Shown here: positions 8,825 to 64,000 of the stretch, one piece after another | Numbering within the stretch: the first letter of the stretch is position 1 | Layout of the letters: every line of letters starts with the position of its first letter | Assembly: GCA_964387175.1 (NCBI GenBank) | Contig: CAYLVJ010000001.1 | Coordinates: 602 to 64,601, forward strand | DNA length: 64,000 bases | Source: an uncultured Candidatus Saccharibacteria bacterium | Lineage (GTDB): Bacteria > Patescibacteriota > Minisyncoccia > Minisyncoccales > CAYTKG01 | Direction of reading: 5' to 3' | Made by a program: the position numbers and the translations under genes | The notes under the pieces: generated by a model | Seen by the model: only the letters and a program-made list of their open reading frames with translations | What the model was told of the DNA's origin: nothing | Database searches by the model: none

Positions 8825-9337
8825 ATGTTAAATCCTAAGGATGTTTTAAGTAGAATTAAGCTGGAGAAGAACATGAAAGCGGCTGAGTTTGGTTGCGGCT
8901 CCGGCAAGTTTGCTCTTCTTTTAGCTGAGAAACTGAAGGAAGGCAAGGTTTATGGGTTTGACATTCAAAAAGAGCCACTCTCTGTTTTAGAGAAAAACGC
9001 TGATCAAAAAGGATTTTTCAATGTAGTGGGGGAAAGGTGCGACTTGGAAAAAGAAAGAGCAACTGCAAAGCCCGATGGTTTTTTTGACCTTGTTTTCATT
9101 CCCAACCTTTTGTTTCAGGTGCAAGGACAAGAAAATGTGATTAAGGAAGCCTCCAGGGTGACAAAAGCAGGCGGGACAGTGGTGGTTATAGATTGGAAAA
9201 AAGAAGCGGCCTTTGGACCTAAGGAAGGAAGAATAGACCGGGGGGAAGTTTTAGACATGGCTCAAGAAAACGGACTTACTTTAAAAAGAGAGCTTGAACC
9301 TGGATCATTTCATTTCGCATTAATTTTTGAAAAATGA
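8825..9337 (+). CDS. class I SAM-dependent methyltransferase
   Basis: motif I EFGCGSGKFALLLAE, acidic motif II, 170 aa; stop TGA overlaps next ATG (ATGA). Confidence 0.8.
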   Translation: MLNPKDVLSRIKLEKNMKAAEFGCGSGKFALLLAEKLKEGKVYGFDIQKEPLSVLEKNADQKGFFNVVGERCDLEKERATAKPDGFFDLVFIPNLLFQVQGQENVIKEASRVTKAGGTVVVIDWKKEAAFGPKEGRIDRGEVLDMAQENGLTLKRELEPGSFHFALIFEK

Positions 9338-9756
9338 AAAAGATATTTTTAATTCTTTTAATGGCTGGCTTGTTATTTTCCTTGATAAGTTATGGATTGA
9401 CATTTAGAAACTCTATTGAGGCAGAAACTTTTGAAGAGTTAATAGAAAGCGTTCTTGATTTTCTCTTTTATATCGGCTTAGCAGCAGTTCCTTTAATGGT
9501 TGTTTTGGGAGGATTTTTCATAGCTACCGCCGGGGGAGACAGTAAACGCTTTAAGAGGGGTCAAAACTTTATACTTTATGCGGTAATTGGATTAGTCGTT
9601 TTACTTTTGGCCCGGGGAATAATTGCTTTTATCAGGCATGCCATAGGTTATGAAAACGGAGAAAGTATGAGAAGGGTGAGAATTGTTAAAAAAGATGATT
9701 TATTTAAAAAAGAATTAAAAGGTCGAACTAGTAATGAAATAAAAATTGAATTATGA
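9334..9756 (+). CDS. TrbC/VirB2-like (T4SS-pilin family) small membrane protein
   Basis: signal peptide, two hydrophobic helices separated by conserved ATAGGD..F.RG motif. Confidence 0.5.
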   Translation: MKKIFLILLMAGLLFSLISYGLTFRNSIEAETFEELIESVLDFLFYIGLAAVPLMVVLGGFFIATAGGDSKRFKRGQNFILYAVIGLVVLLLARGIIAFIRHAIGYENGESMRRVRIVKKDDLFKKELKGRTSNEIKIEL

Positions 9757-10211
9757 ATAGTAAATTAATATTAGCGATTGTTTTCGCTTCTTTGTTTGTG
9801 GGTGTTGCTGGATGGATGCTTGGTCCGCAGCTTGCTATGGCCCAAGATGGGATTCCCACTTCATGTACGGTTAGAAAAGAAACCGGTATTGATGAATGTC
9901 CAGATCCAGCGGAAGATGGCACTGCTGCTGAATGTCAGTATGATTACGAAGGAGACGATTACGATGGAGGGTTGTGTGGGCTTTGTTGTACGGTAAGTAC
10001 TATTTATTATGTAATGGACATCGTTTTCATTGTCTTAATGGCAGTTGTTGTTGGCTTGGTTGTTATAGGGGCCTTTATGATAATGACCGCTGGAGGAGAT
10101 CCAGATAATTTTGGGAAAGGTCGAAAAATGATTATGTTCGCTGCCATCGGATTAGCAGTTGCCTTATTGGCAAGAGCCGTTCCTGCTTTAGTTAAGTTTA
10201 TAATTGGCTGA
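9753..10211 (+). CDS. TrbC/VirB2-like pilin paralog with Cys-rich acidic insert
   Basis: signal peptide, Cys/Asp-rich segment, then MIMTAGGDPDNFGKGRKMIMFAAIGLAVALLARAV paralogous to the upstream ORF. Confidence 0.5.
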   Translation: MNSKLILAIVFASLFVGVAGWMLGPQLAMAQDGIPTSCTVRKETGIDECPDPAEDGTAAECQYDYEGDDYDGGLCGLCCTVSTIYYVMDIVFIVLMAVVVGLVVIGAFMIMTAGGDPDNFGKGRKMIMFAAIGLAVALLARAVPALVKFIIG

Positions 10212-36528: not shown

Positions 36529-36723
36529 TCAACCTGTTTTAAGTAATCTTTTAATTATTTTGGCCTCTCCTTTTGAAACAGGAACCCATTTTCTTTGGCT
36601 TCTTTTTTTATCTCCTGATTTTTTAGCACGAAAATGGTTTTGCCCGCATGCGCGCCTTAAAACCTTGCCTGTTTTTGTTATTTTAAATCTTTTTTGCAGT
36701 GATTTTCTTGTTTTTCCGCTCAT
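36529..36723 (-). CDS. rpmI: 50S ribosomal protein L35
   Basis: 64 aa basic, KTRKSLQKRFKITKTGKV. Confidence 0.9.
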   Translation of the reverse strand: MSGKTRKSLQKRFKITKTGKVLRRACGQNHFRAKKSGDKKRSQRKWVPVSKGEAKIIKRLLKTG

Positions 36724-37232
36724 GTTTCTTTTGAAATTATCGTTGCCAACCCTCCTCTTTCTTTTTTAATTTTTCTTTCTACTTTGATGGGAAGTTCCTT
36801 TTTAACCTTTTCTAAGAAATGATTTATCTTTTTTCTAGCGTGGTCTTTTAAAGCGTTCTCTCTACCTCTCAAGCTTAGAAGAACTCTTACTTTGTAGTTT
36901 TTGTTTAGGAATTCAATTGTTTTTCTCTTTCGTGTTTCAAGGTCGTGTTCCGAGATGTTGAAAGTCAATCTGATTCCCTTTATTTCCCCGGCCTTGCTTT
37001 TTGCTTTTCCCGCCTGCTCCTTTTTCTTTTGTTCGTAAAGATATTTTCCGTAGTCAAGGATCTTGCAGACCGGCGGATCGGTTTGTGTTATTTCTACTAA
37101 GTCCAAACCCCGCTCCTCGGCTTTTTCAAGCGCTTCTTTGGTGGGAACCACTCCTATGTGTTCCCCCTTGTCTATTAGGCGCACCTTATCAGCCCTTATC
37201 TTTTTGTTTTTTCTTGGTTTGGCGATATTAAT
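36720..37232 (-). CDS. infC: translation initiation factor IF-3, probable AUU start
   Basis: IRADKVRLIDKGEHIGVV...VCKILDYGKY; the longer ATG-start ORF would overlap the tmRNA 3' end, an in-frame ATT sits at 37230-37232. Confidence 0.85.
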   Translation of the reverse strand: MNIAKPRKNKKIRADKVRLIDKGEHIGVVPTKEALEKAEERGLDLVEITQTDPPVCKILDYGKYLYEQKKKEQAGKAKSKAGEIKGIRLTFNISEHDLETRKRKTIEFLNKNYKVRVLLSLRGRENALKDHARKKINHFLEKVKKELPIKVERKIKKERGGLATIISKET

Positions 37233-37244
37233 AAAATTAAGTTG

Positions 37245-37591
37245 TGGAGATGGGGAGATTGAACTCCCGTCCAAAACTTCCGCGAGCGTGTTTCTACAAG
37301 CTTAGTCCATTTGTTTTTTTCAAGAAACCGAGTAGTAAATGGACAAAATCTTCGATTTCTTTATCCCTTTTGTTTCGAAAGACTTGTTGGGAAGACAAAC
37401 CTTTCTATCTCAATATATGATACCGGATCTTGACTATTGAGAATCGTCAAGGCGGCACTACCCTTAAGCGTAAGCTAGGGCAGGTTCGAAATCAAAGTTG
37501 GCATTTGTTTGCCTTCCAGGTTTTTGATCAGTTTCCTGGGAACTGAGCTTGCGGCATTCTCACAATAAGTTTTGTCGATGCATGCATCCCC
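37245..37591 (-). ncRNA. ssrA: tmRNA (ssrA), tag peptide ANFDFEPALAYA
   Basis: 5' GGGGATG pairs with 3' CATCTCC+A giving G3:U70; T-arm-like GGGAGTTCAATCTCCCC; in-frame GCC AAC TTT GAT TTC GAA CCT GCC CTA GCT TAC GCT TAA at 37464-37502 (- strand); adjacent smpB. Confidence 0.8.
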
Positions 37592-49833: not shown

Positions 49834-50853
49834 TTAATTTGGCTTCCAAGTTATTGTTTCTTTTTCTACCTTGAAATTGCCGGGAAGGAATTTTTCTATA
49901 ATTTCTATATTTGTTTCAGCATGCTTTGTAACGTGGGAGGCTTTTATTTCGCTTTTTTTGTTGGAAAGAGCCATGTAGGGTAAAAGCTGGTCGGTTGTAT
50001 GTTGGTCAACACAACCCTTTGTTTTTATCTCTTCTAAAAAGCTGGCGGCGGCTTCTTCACCCACCTTTTCTGCTGACTTCCCGAGCTTTCCCAAATTGTC
50101 AACTCCTAAAATAGTTTCTTCAAGCTCTGCTATGATATTTATTACACTTCCCGTACTTTCGGATTCGACATAATCTATTTTTTCTTCAAAAGGGAGGTTC
50201 AGTTTGCCTAAAATTTGTTTTACGCCTGAGATTTGTCTTTCAGCCACTTTTTTTTCCTTTAGATCTTTTGATGCCCGGGAAATGATTTTCAAGGTTTTTA
50301 TTTCTCCTCTTTTTTTAATCTTTATCGGCTTTATTTCCGCCACCAAAAGAGATGTCTTAAGTTGTGCTTTTCCTTTGGGGTAAAACCCTCTTTTTTCGGT
50401 TTCGATTTTGACCTTTACTCCGTGTTTTTCCAGGATTTTTAAAAAAACAAGGTTGAAGTGATCCAGGCTGGGTGAAAAGAAGGTGTCTGTTGCTCCTCCA
50501 CTAAAGGTAACTCTGATCGGTTTTTCTAAAACTGAAACAAGAGGAAGAATTCCCTGTAAGATAAGAGTAATGCTTCCCGCTGTTTCTATTTTAATTTTTA
50601 AATCTCTTGACTGAAGGTAGGTGGGGGTAAAAGTAATTTCTTGGGAGCCGAGCTTAACCCCTTCGGTTTCGGCTCTTGTTAAGACGGCGAGAGCTCTTAT
50701 TGTTTTAAGGTGGGATCTTTTAAGTCCCGGACTTTTTCTTCCGGCTCTGATTTTTGTAATCCGGCATGGTTTTTGGGTCACCACTGAGAGACTTGCGGCG
50801 GTTCTTAGGATTTGTCCTCCCCCTTCTTTTAAGTTGCCGTTTATTTCAATCAT
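49834..50853 (-). CDS. rtcA: RNA 3'-terminal phosphate cyclase RtcA
   Basis: GGGQILRTAASLS, SRASKDL...H region; 339 aa. Confidence 0.85.
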   Translation of the reverse strand: MIEINGNLKEGGGQILRTAASLSVVTQKPCRITKIRAGRKSPGLKRSHLKTIRALAVLTRAETEGVKLGSQEITFTPTYLQSRDLKIKIETAGSITLILQGILPLVSVLEKPIRVTFSGGATDTFFSPSLDHFNLVFLKILEKHGVKVKIETEKRGFYPKGKAQLKTSLLVAEIKPIKIKKRGEIKTLKIISRASKDLKEKKVAERQISGVKQILGKLNLPFEEKIDYVESESTGSVINIIAELEETILGVDNLGKLGKSAEKVGEEAAASFLEEIKTKGCVDQHTTDQLLPYMALSNKKSEIKASHVTKHAETNIEIIEKFLPGNFKVEKETITWKPN

Positions 50854-55238: not shown

Positions 55239-55272
55239 CAATTATTCTTTTTGTAAGTTACTCTAGGTGTGT

Positions 55273-55962
55273 ATGTTAACTATAAAAGCAAAAAAAAGAG
55301 ACGAGAAAAACGAAAAGCTAAGAGAAGAAGGTTTAGTGCCGGCTGTTTTGTACGGTCCGGAGACCGATCCTTTGAAAGTATGCGTGGAGGATAAAACCTT
55401 TAGAAAGGCTTATCAAAAAGCAGGTGAGTCGTCCATTCTCAAACTAGAGGTGGAAGGTGATAAAAAGGAGCATATAGTTTTGATTAAAGACTACCAGGTT
55501 CATCCCGTAACAGACCAGCTTCTTCACATTGACTTTTATCAGCCCATTATGAGTGAAAAGGTGGAGGCGACTGTTCCCGTGGTTTTTGAAGGTGAAGCTC
55601 CCGTCGTTAAAGAAAAAGACGGAGTTTTAATAAAGAACATTTCAGAGCTTCAAGTTTCAGCTCTTCCGAAAGAGCTTCCTTCTGAGATAAAAATAGACGT
55701 TAGCGGGCTTAAAACATTCGGTGACCATATTACGGTGGGGGATATAAGTTTGGGAGAGGGGGTTGAAATAAAAAGGGAAAAGGAAGATGTTGTTGTTTCC
55801 GTTTCCAGTCCTAAAACAGAAGAAGAACTTAAAGAAGAGATGGGCCGCACTGAAGGGGAAGAGCTCTTCATCGGCGAAGAAGAGCTCATTGAAGAAGAGC
55901 CTCTTGAGGAGGGTGAAGAAGAAGAAAAGTCAGAGGAAGAACAGGAAGAAATTGAAATTTAA
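55273..55962 (+). CDS. rplY: 50S ribosomal protein L25 / general stress protein Ctc, acidic C-extension
   Basis: LVPAVLYGP, QLLHIDFY. Confidence 0.8.
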   Translation: MLTIKAKKRDEKNEKLREEGLVPAVLYGPETDPLKVCVEDKTFRKAYQKAGESSILKLEVEGDKKEHIVLIKDYQVHPVTDQLLHIDFYQPIMSEKVEATVPVVFEGEAPVVKEKDGVLIKNISELQVSALPKELPSEIKIDVSGLKTFGDHITVGDISLGEGVEIKREKEDVVVSVSSPKTEEELKEEMGRTEGEELFIGEEELIEEEPLEEGEEEEKSEEEQEEIEI

Positions 55963-55971
55963 AAAATCAAA

Positions 55972-57357
55972 ATGCAAAAAAAGTTTTTAAAAAGAGCTTT
56001 TCTTTCCCTTATTGTTCTAGGGGTTTGTGTTTTTTTAGGAAATGCTTTTTGGTTTGTAAATGCCGAAGAGTCGTGCTCAACCGTAGAAGAATGTAGGGCT
56101 CTTTTGGAAGAATATGAGAGAAAAATTGCCGAGTATCAGCAAATTGTCACTCAGACACAGGCGGAGCAAGATACTTTAAATAATAAAATATATCTTTTAA
56201 GACAAAAAATAAACGGTTTGGATTATCAGATTAGAAGAAGCAATATCGTGATAGGAGATCTTACGGAGCAGGTTAAAGACACACAAGAGTCGATTAAAAA
56301 AAGCGAGAGAGAGATTGAAAAATCAAAAGAACGCTTGACGGAGGTTTTAAGAAGAATAAATGAAGAAGAGCAAAAAAGTACTTTGGAAATTTTTTTAGCG
56401 AACGATGATTTGTCTGAGTTTTTTGAAGATGTATTTGCTTTAGAAACCGTTCTTTCCGAAAACAGAAAGATTTTAGTCCAAATCAAAGAGATGAAAGCAA
56501 GCTTGGAGGGTCAAAAAATAGATTTGGAGTCGGAAACCGAAGAGTGGCGTAGAACAAAGCAGGCTCAAATTTTACAAAAACAGGAGAGAGAAAGTTTAAA
56601 ACAAGAACAGGAGTGGCTTTTAACACAGACCAGGGGAGAGGAAGAAGAGTATCAGAAACTTTTAGCAGAGAACAGAGAAAAAGCTCAAGAAATAAGAGAG
56701 AGAATTTTCAGCTTGGTGGGTGTTGCTGAGGCTCCCAAGTTTGGGGAGGCCTTAGAGATAGCTAGATACGTAGAAAGTGTAACGGGAGTTAGGCCTGCTT
56801 TCCTCTTGGCAATTTTAAGGCAGGAGTCTAACATCGGTCAAAATGTTGGCCAGTGTTATCTTAAGAACAAAGAGACCGGAGACGGTATTGTGATAAGAAC
56901 CGGCCAGACGCAAAGCAGGGTAATGAAACCCATGAATGTCGGAGGAAGGAAAGGAGATGTGGATGACTTTATTGCCACCTGCAGTGAGGTGGGAAGAGAT
57001 CCTTACAGTACTCCTATTTCTTGTCCTTACGTTAGCGATGGGCAAATTATTGGATATGGAGGAGCGATGGGCCCGGCTCAGTTTATTCCGACTACGTGGG
57101 CGACTTACAAGCACAATGTGAAAGCTGTCACCGGGAAGCCAGCTGATCCGTGGGACATTAAAGATGCATTTTTAGCGGCTGGTCTTTTATTAAGAGATGC
57201 GGGAGCTACTTCTAAAGAGGGAGAGTGGTGTGCGGCCATGGTTTATTATTCCGGTTCCTGTAGCTCTGGTCATGACTACTATGCCAATTCTGTAACGAGC
57301 ATTGTAAAACAATATGAAAACGATATCGCGCAACTTGAAAAATACGGTAGTAAATAA
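55972..57357 (+). CDS. secreted coiled-coil protein with C-terminal MltB-like lytic transglycosylase domain
   Basis: signal peptide, long coiled coil, ILRQESN ... GGAMGPAQFIPTTW. Confidence 0.65.
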   Translation: MQKKFLKRAFLSLIVLGVCVFLGNAFWFVNAEESCSTVEECRALLEEYERKIAEYQQIVTQTQAEQDTLNNKIYLLRQKINGLDYQIRRSNIVIGDLTEQVKDTQESIKKSEREIEKSKERLTEVLRRINEEEQKSTLEIFLANDDLSEFFEDVFALETVLSENRKILVQIKEMKASLEGQKIDLESETEEWRRTKQAQILQKQERESLKQEQEWLLTQTRGEEEEYQKLLAENREKAQEIRERIFSLVGVAEAPKFGEALEIARYVESVTGVRPAFLLAILRQESNIGQNVGQCYLKNKETGDGIVIRTGQTQSRVMKPMNVGGRKGDVDDFIATCSEVGRDPYSTPISCPYVSDGQIIGYGGAMGPAQFIPTTWATYKHNVKAVTGKPADPWDIKDAFLAAGLLLRDAGATSKEGEWCAAMVYYSGSCSSGHDYYANSVTSIVKQYENDIAQLEKYGSK

Positions 57358-57371
57358 TTTAAAAAGAAATA

Positions 57372-57398
57372 AAAAAGGCGCTTTAAGCGCCTTTTTTG
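57372..57398. terminator. bidirectional terminator (AAGGCGCTTTAAGCGCCTTTTTT)
   Basis: palindrome between convergent genes. Confidence 0.6.
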
Positions 57399-57401
57399 TT
57401 T

Positions 57402-58130
57402 TTAAGAGAAGTTTTTTATTATCGGGTCTAGATTTCCTTCTAGTATTTCTTCTAAGTTGTGCCAAGTTTTTTCAAGACGGTGGTCGGTTACTCTGTTTTG
57501 GGGGAAGTTATAAGTTCTTATTTTGAATGATCTTTTCCCTCCGCCCATTTGATTTTTTCTCTTTTTCTCTTTTTTTTGTCGCAGCTTTTTCTTTTTTTCT
57601 TCTACCAGTTTCGCCTGTAGAATTCGAATAGCATTGACTTTGTTTTTGTGTTGGCTTCTGGCTGACTGGCAGTTAATCGTTAGTCCTGTCGGTTTGTGGG
57701 TAACCCGAACGGCGGTTTCCGTTTTGTTGGTATATTGTCCTCCCGGCCCCGAAGCTCTGTATGACTCTATTTCTACATCGCTTCTTTTAAGTTTTGCTTG
57801 CTTTGCGTTTGTTTTTTTAAGAACTACTACGGTGGCGGTTGAGGTATGGATTCTTCCTTTGCTTTCGGTTTCTGGTACTCTTTGAATCCTGTGAACCCCG
57901 GCTTCGTTTTTCATTAAAGTGTACGCTTTTTCTCCCCTTAATTCAAAAACAACCTCTTTAAGCCCGTTTAGAGAGGTTGTTTCCATGTTTAGAGTTTTAA
58001 GCCCCCAGCCGTGTTTTTTTGCGTAACCGGAGTACATTTTGAAAAGATCTTTTACAAATTTGGCTGCTTCTTCTCCTCCGGCGCCGGGTCTAATCTCAAC
58101 AATAACGCTTTCAAGATTGTTTTTCCCCAT
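57402..58130 (-). CDS. prfA: class I peptide chain release factor, RF1-like (PET tripeptide, GGQ) lacking N-terminal domain 1
   Basis: [11 protein letters not shown] (domain 2 start), [37 protein letters not shown]; in-frame stop 16 codons upstream of ATG. Confidence 0.8.
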
Positions 58131-58371
58131 CTTTTTCTTCTGTTTTGACTTGTTTTTTTTGCATCTTTTGGTGCTTTTTCATCTTCTTTCGGAATTTTTC
58201 AACTCTTCCCATAGAGTCTACTATTTTTTCTTTTCCGGTGTAGAAAGGGTGGCACGCGGAACATATCTCCACCTTTATATATTCTTGGGTGGATCCAGTC
58301 TTAAATTTATTTCCGCAGGCGCACTCAACTGTTGCTTCCGGAAAATATTTTGGGTGTACGTCTTTTTTCAT
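58111..58371 (-). CDS. rpmE: 50S ribosomal protein L31 (zinc-binding type) with basic C-extension
   Basis: [16 protein letters not shown]...[11 protein letters not shown]. Confidence 0.9.
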
Positions 58372-58472
58372 GACTTATACCTTTATTTCTATTATTATCT
58401 ATTTTATCCTATCAGAAGTCATTGGAGGTTGCAACCTTGATTTAGAAAAGGACAATTGTTATATTAAATCAT

Positions 58473-59357
58473 ATGATTAATAACAAAACTAATTCAAAAT
58501 CTGTAGAAAAGGCGTTTAACTTGGATCCTGAAGAAATGGTGAAGGCAGGGGTCCACTTTGGACACAATCCTTCCAATCTTCATCCTAAAATGGCCCCTTT
58601 CGTTCATAAGAAAAAAAAGAATGTTTATCTTTTGGATCTGGAGAAAACCGTTGAAAAATTTACTGAGGCACTCCAGTTTATTCAAAAACAGGCGAAAGAG
58701 GGGAAAACAATTCTTTTTGTGGGAACCAAGTCTCAACACAAGAAATTGGTGGAGAAAACAGCTAAAAGATGCGGCTTTCCTTATGTCACCCAAAGATGGT
58801 TGGGCGGAATTCTTACCAACTTCGGGGTGTTAAGGGATAGGATTGATTATTTTATAGAGTTTAGGCAAAAGATAAACTCTTCTGATTTCGAAAAATACAC
58901 CAACAAAGAACAACTGGACATGAAGCACGAACTTTATAAATTAAAGAGAAAGTTCGGAGGTATAGAAAAACTTGAAGGTATTCCTGACGCTGTCTTCATT
59001 TGTGATTTAGGAAGAGACGATCTTGCCTTTGAGGAGGCGAGGAAAAAAGGAGTAACGGTGATAGGAGTTTGTGACAGTGATGTTGATCCGACCTTTGTTA
59101 GTTACCCTATCTTTGCCAATGACGACGCCGTCTCTTCTATGGAATATATTTTAAAAAAAGTAGAAGAGGCAATTGGCGAGGTTAAAACCTTAAAAGAATT
59201 GAAAGAAAAAGAAATTAAAAAACCTGAAGAAAGAGAAACCAAAGAAAAAGAGAAAAAGGAAGAAGAACAAGAAGAAGAAAAAGAGGAAAAAAAGCAAGAA
59301 GAAGAAAAAGAGGAAAAAAAGCAAGAAGAAGAAAAATCAAAAGAAAAAGAAAATTAA
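58473..59357 (+). CDS. rpsB: 30S ribosomal protein S2 with K/E-rich repetitive tail
   Basis: AGVHFGHNPSNLHPKMAPFV, VFICDL; tail has tandem 39-nt repeat. Confidence 0.9.
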   Translation: MINNKTNSKSVEKAFNLDPEEMVKAGVHFGHNPSNLHPKMAPFVHKKKKNVYLLDLEKTVEKFTEALQFIQKQAKEGKTILFVGTKSQHKKLVEKTAKRCGFPYVTQRWLGGILTNFGVLRDRIDYFIEFRQKINSSDFEKYTNKEQLDMKHELYKLKRKFGGIEKLEGIPDAVFICDLGRDDLAFEEARKKGVTVIGVCDSDVDPTFVSYPIFANDDAVSSMEYILKKVEEAIGEVKTLKELKEKEIKKPEERETKEKEKKEEEQEEEKEEKKQEEEKEEKKQEEEKSKEKEN

Positions 59358-59371
59358 ATTAACTTAAAATT

Positions 59372-59956
59372 ATGGTTGAAATAGAAAAAATTAAAAAGTT
59401 GAGAGATAAGACGGGGATATCGGTGATGGAGTGTAAAAAGGCGATAGAAGAGGCCGGAGGAGATCTTTCTCAAGCTGAAAAAATTTTAAGAAAAGCAAAA
59501 AGAAGATTAGCTGCAAAGAAAAAAGGAAGAACCACCGGCGAGGGAGTGGTTGCAAGCTACATTCACGCCAACAAAAAAATGGGATCTTTGGTGCAGGTGA
59601 ATTGTGAGACTGATTTTGTTTCTAAGTCCGAACGATTTCAGAAACTGGCCGAGGCTTTAGCGATGCAGGTGGCGGCTATGAACCCTCTTTTTGTTAGTGA
59701 AAAAGACATTCCTGAAAAAGTTTTACAAGAAAAAAAAGAGACGATTAAGGAGAAGATGAAAGAAAAAGAAAAACCGGCTGATATAATTGATAAAATTACG
59801 GAAGGAAAAATTTCTAAATGGAAGGATCAAGTTTGTCTTTTAAGGCAGGAGTTTATCAAAGATTCAGACAAAAGCGTGAAAGATTTGGTGCAGTCTGCGA
59901 TTGCGGAGATAGGAGAAAATATTACCATTGAGCGCTTTACGCGTTACGAGATATAA
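59372..59956 (+). CDS. tsf: elongation factor Ts (short form)
   Basis: UBA-like IKKLRDKTGISVMECKKAIEEAGGDLSQAEKILRK. Confidence 0.9.
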   Translation: MVEIEKIKKLRDKTGISVMECKKAIEEAGGDLSQAEKILRKAKRRLAAKKKGRTTGEGVVASYIHANKKMGSLVQVNCETDFVSKSERFQKLAEALAMQVAAMNPLFVSEKDIPEKVLQEKKETIKEKMKEKEKPADIIDKITEGKISKWKDQVCLLRQEFIKDSDKSVKDLVQSAIAEIGENITIERFTRYEI

Positions 59957-60617: not shown

Positions 60618-62104
<1,487 letters not shown>

Positions 62105-62288: not shown

Positions 62289-62365
62289 GGGTGTGTAGCT
62301 CAGTTGGCTAGAGCACGTCTCTGATAAAGACGAGGTCCGTGGTTCGAGTCCACGCACACCCACCA
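62289..62365 (+). tRNA. tRNA-Ile (GAU), CCA encoded
   Basis: acceptor GGGTGTG/CACACCC, anticodon loop CTGATAA. Confidence 0.85.
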
Positions 62366-62368
62366 TTT

Positions 62369-62440
62369 GGGCCGTTAGCTCAATGGCAGAGCACCTCGTT
62401 TGCATCGAGGAGGTTACCAGTTCAAGTCTGGTACGGTCCA
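62369..62440 (+). tRNA. tRNA-Ala (UGC), G3:U70
   Basis: acceptor GGGCCGT/ACGGTCC with G3:U70, anticodon loop TTTGCAT. Confidence 0.85.
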
Positions 62441-62496
62441 CACTACTTTCCCATCTAAAAAGGTCTTTAATAATAAATTTACAATTAATTTATAAC

Positions 62497-63210
62497 ATGA
62501 ATGACAAATTACTTTTAGAAGTAGGAGGTAATCTTCCGGAAAGTTGGCAAAGCGCTTTAAGCCCTCGGCCTTTTACAGTGGCTTTTCAAAGAATGATTGG
62601 GTTTTTCCCTAATATTATTGGGTCGATTATTCTTCTAGTGCTCGGTTGGCTGGTGGCCAACGGTATTGGAAAGTTAGTTAGTGAACTTTTGAAAGCTTCT
62701 GGGTTTAACAAATTATTTGAAAAATCCGGGTGGCAGGAAGCTTTAAAAAGAGCGGAGGTGGAGGTGGATGTTTCTCAATTTTTGGGAGCGGTTTGCAAGT
62801 GGGTTCTTTTCTTTGTTTTTCTGGCGATAGGGGTTGAAGTTTTAGGACTCAGTCAGTTTGCTGGATTCTTAAATCAAGTTCTAGCTTATATCCCCAGCGT
62901 GATTGTTTCTGTTTTAATTTTTGTAGCAGCGGTTGTTATTTCCGATATCCTAGAGAAAATAGTGGTTGCTTCTTTGGAGAAAGCAAAACTGGGTTACACG
63001 AAACTAGCTGGACTTTTAGTTAGGTGGGCGATAATAGGGTTTTCTTTGCTGGCTATTCTGGTTCAGTTGGGTATTGCCAAAGAAATGGTACTTGTTCTGT
63101 TTAGAGGAGTAGTTGGTTTCTTTGTTATTTCCTTGGGTCTTGCTTTTGGCTTGGGAGGAAAAGAAATCGCCGGTGAAATCTTAAGAAAACTTCAGAGAAA
63201 ATTAAAATAA
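62497..63210 (+). CDS. membrane protein with conserved TM-helix repeats (mechanosensitive-channel-associated TM_helix-like), inside the rRNA spacer
   Basis: 237 aa from ATG 62497; 4-5 TM helices, repeated ~50-aa units; track ORF start 62383 overlaps tRNA-Ala so internal ATG chosen. Confidence 0.55.
   Translation: MNDKLLLEVGGNLPESWQSALSPRPFTVAFQRMIGFFPNIIGSIILLVLGWLVANGIGKLVSELLKASGFNKLFEKSGWQEALKRAEVEVDVSQFLGAVCKWVLFFVFLAIGVEVLGLSQFAGFLNQVLAYIPSVIVSVLIFVAAVVISDILEKIVVASLEKAKLGYTKLAGLLVRWAIIGFSLLAILVQLGIAKEMVLVLFRGVVGFFVISLGLAFGLGGKEIAGEILRKLQRKLK

Positions 63211-63460: not shown

Positions 63461-64000
<540 letters not shown>

Follow-up and report, generated by a model that had tools for sequence, protein, structure and literature searches.

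A 242-residue RF1 without domain 1 in a CPR-type genome: probable in-frame deletion at the rpmE-prfA locus and likely repeated loss among Patescibacteria

Domain 1 is regarded in textbooks and family models as an invariable part of the class I release factors of bacteria. In E. coli, RF3 engages the factor through this domain, which also makes contact with the L11 stalk. The closest described architecture without it is that of the E. coli RF1 domain-1 deletions, which are laboratory constructs and for which slow growth of the carrier cells has been reported. These constructs keep codon-specific release and lose the stimulation by RF3 (PMC1586002). Domain 1 was dispensable for codon recognition and peptide release (PMC1586002, citing Mora et al. 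2003; Vestergaard et al. 2005), and truncated E. coli RF1 was functional in vitro and in vivo, domain 1 being required for the RF3 interaction (PMC1586002). By cryo-EM, RF1 domain 1 bridges the L11 N-terminal domain and domain 3 of RF3 (PMC3677378). A reviewer comment printed in PMC1586002 states that domain 1 seems to carry more weight for RF2 than for RF1.

PrfH (RF-H, the partner of RtcB2) belongs to the class I release factor homologues; it is without domain 1 by nature and retains GGQ. Its targets are damaged ribosomes, its decoding region is altered, and its gene invariably follows an rtcB-type partner gene. ArfB/ICT1 is also a GGQ-domain protein without domain 1; ArfB (~140 aa) has no codon-reading domains 2 and 4, and its basic C-terminal tail probes the empty mRNA channel.

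The RF1 gene described here lies in a 64-kb stretch of DNA, which was analysed as a whole and is called the window. Its product resembles canonical RF1 (NCBIfam TIGR00019 and NF001859; structures 1RQ0 and T. thermophilus RF1) in domains 2–4, the PxT and GGQ motifs, the switch-loop region and a closed fold, and its rpmE-prfA locus is that of related Patescibacteria. It differs by the absence of the ~100-residue helical domain 1, which makes the contacts with the L11 N-terminal domain and RF3. Compared with the E. coli constructs, the short RF1 is natural, under selection, apparently the sole RF1, and appears to have arisen more than once. Compared with PrfH, it has an RF1-type PxT loop and rpmE upstream, and unlike ArfB it contains domains 2 and 4. 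Literature on RF1 and release factors in Patescibacteria, CPR and Parcubacteria was covered incompletely, and the truncation was not found in the part covered; a survey of prfB frameshifting does not mention Patescibacteria. In databases the short proteins are labelled plainly as 'peptide chain release factor 1'. The features of the locus are as follows.

55267–57357, plus strand: L25/TL5 gene and gene for a coiled-coil SLT-type peptidoglycan hydrolase, convergent with prfA (Pfam)
57371–57397, minus strand: terminator-like hairpin, 12-bp stem and T run (consensus scan only)
57402–58130, minus strand: prfA, 242-aa RF1 consisting of domains 2, 3 and 4 only (ORF list, Pfam, NCBIfam)
57735–57743, minus strand: GGQ catalytic motif, residues 130–132, codons GGA GGA CAA
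57867–57875, minus strand: PET, the PxT 'anticodon', residues 86–88, codons CCA GAA ACC
58067–58096, minus strand: first strand of domain 2 and helix-alpha5 tip, residues 12–21, with invariant residues
58111–58130, minus strand: 20-nt overlap of the rpmE 3' end and the prfA start (ORF coordinates)
58111–58371, minus strand: rpmE, bL31 of 86 aa ending in TGA (Pfam Ribosomal_L31, residues 1–63; NCBIfam L31)
58394–58422, minus strand: promoter-like site upstream of rpmE (9/12 matches, weak)
58473–59956, plus strand: rpsB and tsf, divergent from rpmE-prfA (ORFs, synteny)

Several other features of the window were recorded. A tmRNA gene (37244–37591, minus strand; tag ANFDFEPALAYA) adjoins infC (36720–37274, minus strand) with ~30 nt of overlap as listed. 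RtcA, the RNA 3'-terminal phosphate cyclase, is encoded at 49834–50853 on the minus strand, and no rtcB was seen among the nearby ORFs scanned; this gene has no connection with the RF1 locus and is of note because RtcB is the partner in PrfH systems. The 16S rRNA (60619–62104) is followed by two tRNAs (62289–62440), a 275-aa ORF (62383–63210) and the start of the 23S rRNA at 63463. This ORF has mechanosensitive-channel transmembrane helices and its listed start overlaps the second tRNA, so that a protein-coding gene apparently lies between the spacer tRNAs and the 23S rRNA. A 140-aa ORF (9334–9756, plus strand) belongs to the type IV secretion system pilin family PF18895; it sits in a run of short genes (8825–10211) and has ATGA-type 4-nt junctions with its neighbours.

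The prfA ORF starts with ATG and encodes 242 aa. Between this ATG and the upstream in-frame stop there are 16 codons, none of them ATG, GTG or TTG, as an earlier note made from the letters of this stretch had said, and the earliest available start lies 20 nt within rpmE. The same note had proposed alignment to PF03462 and PF00472. Pfam PCRF (PF03462) matched only from profile position 96 to 194 of 194 (146 bits), and RF-1 (PF00472) matched almost whole, from 5 to 116 of 116 (122 bits). Among the NCBIfam prfA models, NF001859 covered model positions 101–337 of 347 with 340.6 bits, and the TIGR00019 match began at model position 108 of 361 with 336.6 bits. Both scores are below the curated cut-offs (400 and 423.25, respectively), which fits the absence of ~100 model positions; these first ~100 positions, corresponding to domain 1, had no counterpart in the 242-aa protein. 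Models of other families gave lower values, namely 231.8 bits for NCBIfam prfB (cut-off 370), 101.2 bits for PrfH (TIGR03072, cut-off 166.65) and 38.7 bits for ArfB (cut-off 100), where residues 110–144 alone matched. With the window RF1 as query, RF1 chains in the PDB scored 293–209 bits and RF2 chains at most 157 bits. The protein aligned without gaps to residues 86–318 of T. maritima RF1, 106–337 of T. thermophilus RF1 and 110–342 of E. coli RF1, and its identity to canonical RF1 domains 2–4 was 50–57%.

An HMM of domain 1 was built from 54 full-length Patescibacteria domain-1 sequences. In a six-frame search of the 64-kb window it found no match (best E = 0.43), and it found nothing within ~5–10 kb on both sides of RF1 in the six other short-form loci that have long flanks (L002, L004, L015, L021, L023, L036). 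The same HMM recovered every full-length locus with E values of 1e-8 to 1e-33. The negative result indicates that no remnant, frameshifted domain or nearby split gene is present in the DNA searched. It agrees with the Pfam and NCBIfam coordinates and bears out two statements of the earlier note, that domain 1 is absent and that there is no frameshifted N-domain. The note had also called this ORF the only class I release factor of the window, and tblastn found no second release factor in the 64 kb.

The protein begins at the domain-2 motif and keeps both functional tripeptides, PET and GGQ, which were read from the sequence and match the earlier description. The decoding tripeptide is PET and not the SPF of RF2. 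In an alignment of 73 homologues P86, T88, G130, G131 and Q132 were invariant, as were E12, I13, R14, G16, G18, G19 and E21 and the H95–T98 block, which is part of the GRIHTST of RF1. The helix-alpha5 tip within residues 12–21 presumably reads the first stop-codon base (U1), as in RF1–ribosome structures. The AlphaFold model based on the same alignment had a mean pLDDT of 84 and a pTM of 0.74, and it superposed on the closed T. maritima RF1 (1rq0) with a TM-score of 0.85 and 2.9 Å rmsd. These results support reading the 242-aa protein as a true RF1 that lacks domain 1, encoded in a CPR-type genome.

The window RF1 (57693–57740, minus strand) and the RF2 found in the same sample (L041, see below) share an identical, unusual 16-residue segment flanking GGQ, whose usual form is GGQHVNKTESAVRITH. 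Recent gene conversion between RF1 and RF2 was considered for this segment and rejected, since third codon positions were merely 40–53% identical, which indicates parallel constraint.

The position of the gene was compared by tblastn over 16 loci and by Pfam annotation of homologous loci. Short and full-length loci shared the neighbourhood tsf, rpsB / rpmE-prfA / SLT, L25, and the SLT–L25 order was repeated in L002, L038 and L039. For short forms, the L31 stop lay between 20 nt inside the RF1 start (−20) and 33 nt before it (+33); for full-length forms, it lay 0 to ~200 nt ahead of an RF1 of 336–361 aa. Overlap of rpmE with a short prfA was also seen in L038 and L040. L038 (243 aa, 4-nt overlap) and L039 (352 aa) share their gene order, and their RF1 cores are 77% identical. 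As both forms occur in one neighbourhood, the short form is best read as the orthologous prfA after a deletion in situ. In a related short-form locus (L015) and in two Staskawiczbacteria loci (L010, L014), rpmE is on the opposite strand.

The Ribosomal_L31 match in the window ends at residue 63, leaving a 23-aa Lys-rich C-terminal tail that is conserved in the sister MAG. The space upstream of prfA is thus occupied by the extended C-terminus of L31 in another frame, as had been noted before, and the two genes overlap by 20 nt. We considered this tail as a possible remnant of domain 1; the domain-1 HMM was negative for it, in the other frames too, and the idea was rejected. The overlap makes translational coupling of rpmE and prfA likely, judging from the coordinates. 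The promoter-like site lies within the divergent rpmE/rpsB intergenic region, and the terminator-like hairpin begins 5 nt past the prfA stop, in the gap that separates this gene from the convergent SLT gene. Together with the overlap, these signals are consistent with an rpmE-prfA operon.

The earlier note had suggested a search for release factors without domain 1 in other CPR genomes, and these turned out to be widespread among relatives. The homologue set comprised the 120 best database homologues and 3 cluster members. Among these 123 closest retrieved sequences, 52 were short, 61 had a full N-terminal domain and 10 were intermediate. The 52 short forms begin 1–25 residues ahead of the EIRxGxGG motif. 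The shared core was used for a neighbour-joining tree with bootstrap, which is short and resolved only in part; it placed the window RF1 in a 12-member clade made up of short forms (100% bootstrap). The HR35-type short forms (P0092, P0105) clustered with full-length forms (81% bootstrap), and another group of short and intermediate forms joined full-length forms with 63% bootstrap. The identity of short forms reached 80% with a full-length form and fell to 48% among themselves. The core of the window's clade was more diverged than that of other short forms, being 57–59% identical to any full-length form. Taken together, tree and identities indicate at least two independent deletions of domain 1, and probably more than two.

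Graded forms were also present. Intermediate RF1s of 287–311 aa have ~50–70 residues before EIRxGxGG. The Staskawiczbacteria RF1s (269–282 aa) have a stretch of 35–50 residues rich in Trp, Gln and Glu in place of domain 1, as seen in L007, L010, L012, L014 and L019; this N-terminus is of low complexity, e.g. MTEEYNWQEEQQKWQNYQAQDQ... It is fairly probable that in much of the Patescibacteria RF1, and not RF2, has repeatedly shed domain 1, giving forms of ~240 aa, forms of 270–310 aa and Trp/Gln-rich replacements. In eight of the loci (L031, L033, L034, L005, L008, L011, L024, L036) the RF genes were nearest to Woesebacteria/Microgenomates or Parcubacteria-type sequences; their record titles ('Gammaproteobacteria', 'Candidatus Saccharibacteria') look unreliable, and one of these records is a 938-kb 'chromosome', OZ246401.1. 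The window itself could be placed at the level of Patescibacteria, with a Parcubacteria-like character.

A library of representatives at 50% identity was rejected as a basis for a frequency estimate, because short forms in it are mostly hidden behind full-length representatives. P0125, P0126 and P0231 were apparent true short forms in this library. The other entries of short or odd length that were inspected were fragments, tandem mis-assemblies and frameshift or read-through products, mostly of high GC. P0124, P0127, P0144, P0145, P0150 and others are 'RF1' entries of odd length with tandem duplications or Arg/Pro/Ala-rich tails, and such entries could mislead surveys based on length.

The stop codons of 64 long non-overlapping ORFs in the window were TAA (45), TGA (15) and TAG (4). 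The GC content of the window is 40%, and its stop codon use is skewed, with TAG the rarest (4/64). The earlier note had taken TGA to be a stop here and RF2 to be encoded elsewhere. Both points held: TGA terminates 15 of the 64 ORFs, so the code is standard and RF2 is needed, and RF2 genes were found in the window's sample and in the sister MAG. The RF2 genes with their sites are given below.

L025: RF2 of MAG CAZTOB01, domain 1 in open frame, +1 shift at TGG GTT TGA C
L041 (protein P0274): RF2 of SRR7048227, 96% identical to the L025 RF2, same shift site, 371 aa when joined
L026, L027, L030: RF2 of three Staskawiczbacteria genomes, 364–370 aa, canonical CTT TGA C

SRR7048227 also contains the exact RF1 of the window. 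The prfB shift site of this lineage (L025: 386–392; L041: 495–501) carries the Val codon GTT where CTT is near-universal, a GGAG lies a few bases upstream of GTT TGA C, and the site is identical in the sister MAG and the window's sample. Some 'short RF2s' of 259–300 aa appeared in the length table. As evidence of truncation they were rejected after P0293 was checked at the DNA level: this 260-aa RF2 call is an artefact of a frameshifted gene, whose reading frame continues open upstream for another 97 codons, domain 1 included. Wherever the region upstream of an RF2 gene was inspected in detail, the loss of domain 1 proved specific to RF1. One possibility is that RF2 retains the domain owing to a greater functional dependence on it; another is that the autoregulatory frameshift site lies inside the region coding for domain 1 and may hold it in place.

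The gene structure, its conservation and the selection acting on it were established from the sequences, as were the orthologous locus, the recurrence and the full-length RF2, and these observations bear on four other explanations. An artefact of sequencing, assembly or gene calling is hardly credible here, even though many 'short' release factors in databases are of that kind (high-GC fragments, the 260-aa RF2 call P0293). The upstream stop and the rpmE coding frame rule out an N-terminal extension. Logan contig L001 (SRR7048227), an independent assembly, contains an identical rpmE-prfA pair, and the sister MAG CAZTOB01 (the species representative; L005) encodes a 95%-identical RF1 of 242 aa whose upstream stop and 20-nt overlap with rpmE are as in the window. 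The short architecture was viewed at the DNA level in at least nine loci. With more than 50 short homologues and the negative HMM search in addition, the frameshift or assembly error that the earlier note had named as a possible refutation does not hold. It is also highly improbable that the gene is a decaying remnant, in the sense that TAG is rare, RF1 is being lost and RF2 is taking over. TAG does end merely 4 of the 64 ORFs and RF2 is intact. However, the window and L005 differ by 51.5 synonymous and 12.5 non-synonymous changes, giving a dN/dS of 0.05, a value of strong purifying selection; no variation was seen in GGQ, PxT or the decoding residues of 73 homologues, the short form is kept throughout a deep clade, and TAG still serves as a stop codon.

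The gene might instead be an extra specialised paralogue, a PrfH- or ArfB-like factor for rescue or quality control, with a full-length RF1 encoded elsewhere. We consider this quite unlikely. Paralogues of release factors without domain 1 are known, the family models of PrfH and ArfB did score (101 and 39 bits), the visible genome is 64 kb, and the scan of relatives was pattern-based, with six peptide patterns derived from the query. Against this, the gene occupies the rpmE-prfA locus that holds full-length RF1 in relatives, its score of 340 bits to RF1 is far over those to PrfH and ArfB, and it keeps the RF1-specific PxT loop; the ArfB-like paralogue that the earlier note had allowed for is accordingly improbable. 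There is no rtcB partner: the upstream gene is rpmE, and of the rtc genes rtcA alone was seen, 7 kb off. A tmRNA is available for ribosome rescue, which counts against a rescue role for the short RF1, and the scan of MAG CAZTOB01 with the six patterns yielded only this RF1 and one RF2. A supply of domain 1 in trans, from a split gene whose stand-alone product joins RF1 on the ribosome, is very unlikely. Domain 1 is attached flexibly, as a module (PMC1586002), and most of the genome is unseen, but the domain-1 HMM was blank in the 64-kb window and in the ~5–10 kb flanks of six short-form loci, and the shortened or replaced N-termini of relatives suggest gradual decay and not a split.

The reading that we prefer, with a probability of roughly 0.8, is that of an ordinary RF1 that underwent an in-frame deletion of domain 1 and works at UAA and UAG without L11 or RF3, a full-length RF2 being encoded separately. 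Some lineages without RF3, Bacillus among them, still keep domain 1, so loss of RF3 alone is an insufficient explanation for such a deletion. In the proposed course of events, loss of ~100–110 codons would have placed domain 2 directly behind rpmE, here overlapping it, and the short RF1 would be translated from a two-gene rpmE-prfA transcript. From the published E. coli truncation results we infer that it is active and specific for UAA and UAG. It would enter the A site, where the intact PET loop and the helix-alpha5 tip would read UAA or UAG, and its GGQ loop would hydrolyse the peptidyl-tRNA. Independence of L11 and RF3 is predicted from the architecture, as a protein without domain 1 should make no contact with the L11 N-terminal domain or with RF3. 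Its departure from the ribosome would then be spontaneous or would occur during subunit rotation or recycling. UGA and part of UAA would be handled by the full-length RF2, with its domain 1 and frameshift autoregulation.

As the short RF1s score below the NCBIfam cut-offs, annotation might mark them as partial, and surveys of genome completeness or of genetic codes might record RF1 as missing. The short forms are ready-made minimal RF1s for structural or synthetic-biology use. If RF1 has indeed shed domain 1 repeatedly across much of the Patescibacteria, these organisms would terminate at UAG and UAA with a minimal, tRNA-shaped RF1 that can do without the L11 contact and RF3. A functional difference between RF1 and RF2 would come to light as well, RF2 keeping the domain that carries its frameshift site, and the loss offers a testable link to other reductions of the CPR ribosome. 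A lineage-wide loss would be the evolutionary, in vivo counterpart of the E. coli truncation experiments and would show, by a natural example, that RF1 carries domain 1 as an accessory; an RF1 without this domain could then serve a free-living or episymbiotic cell.
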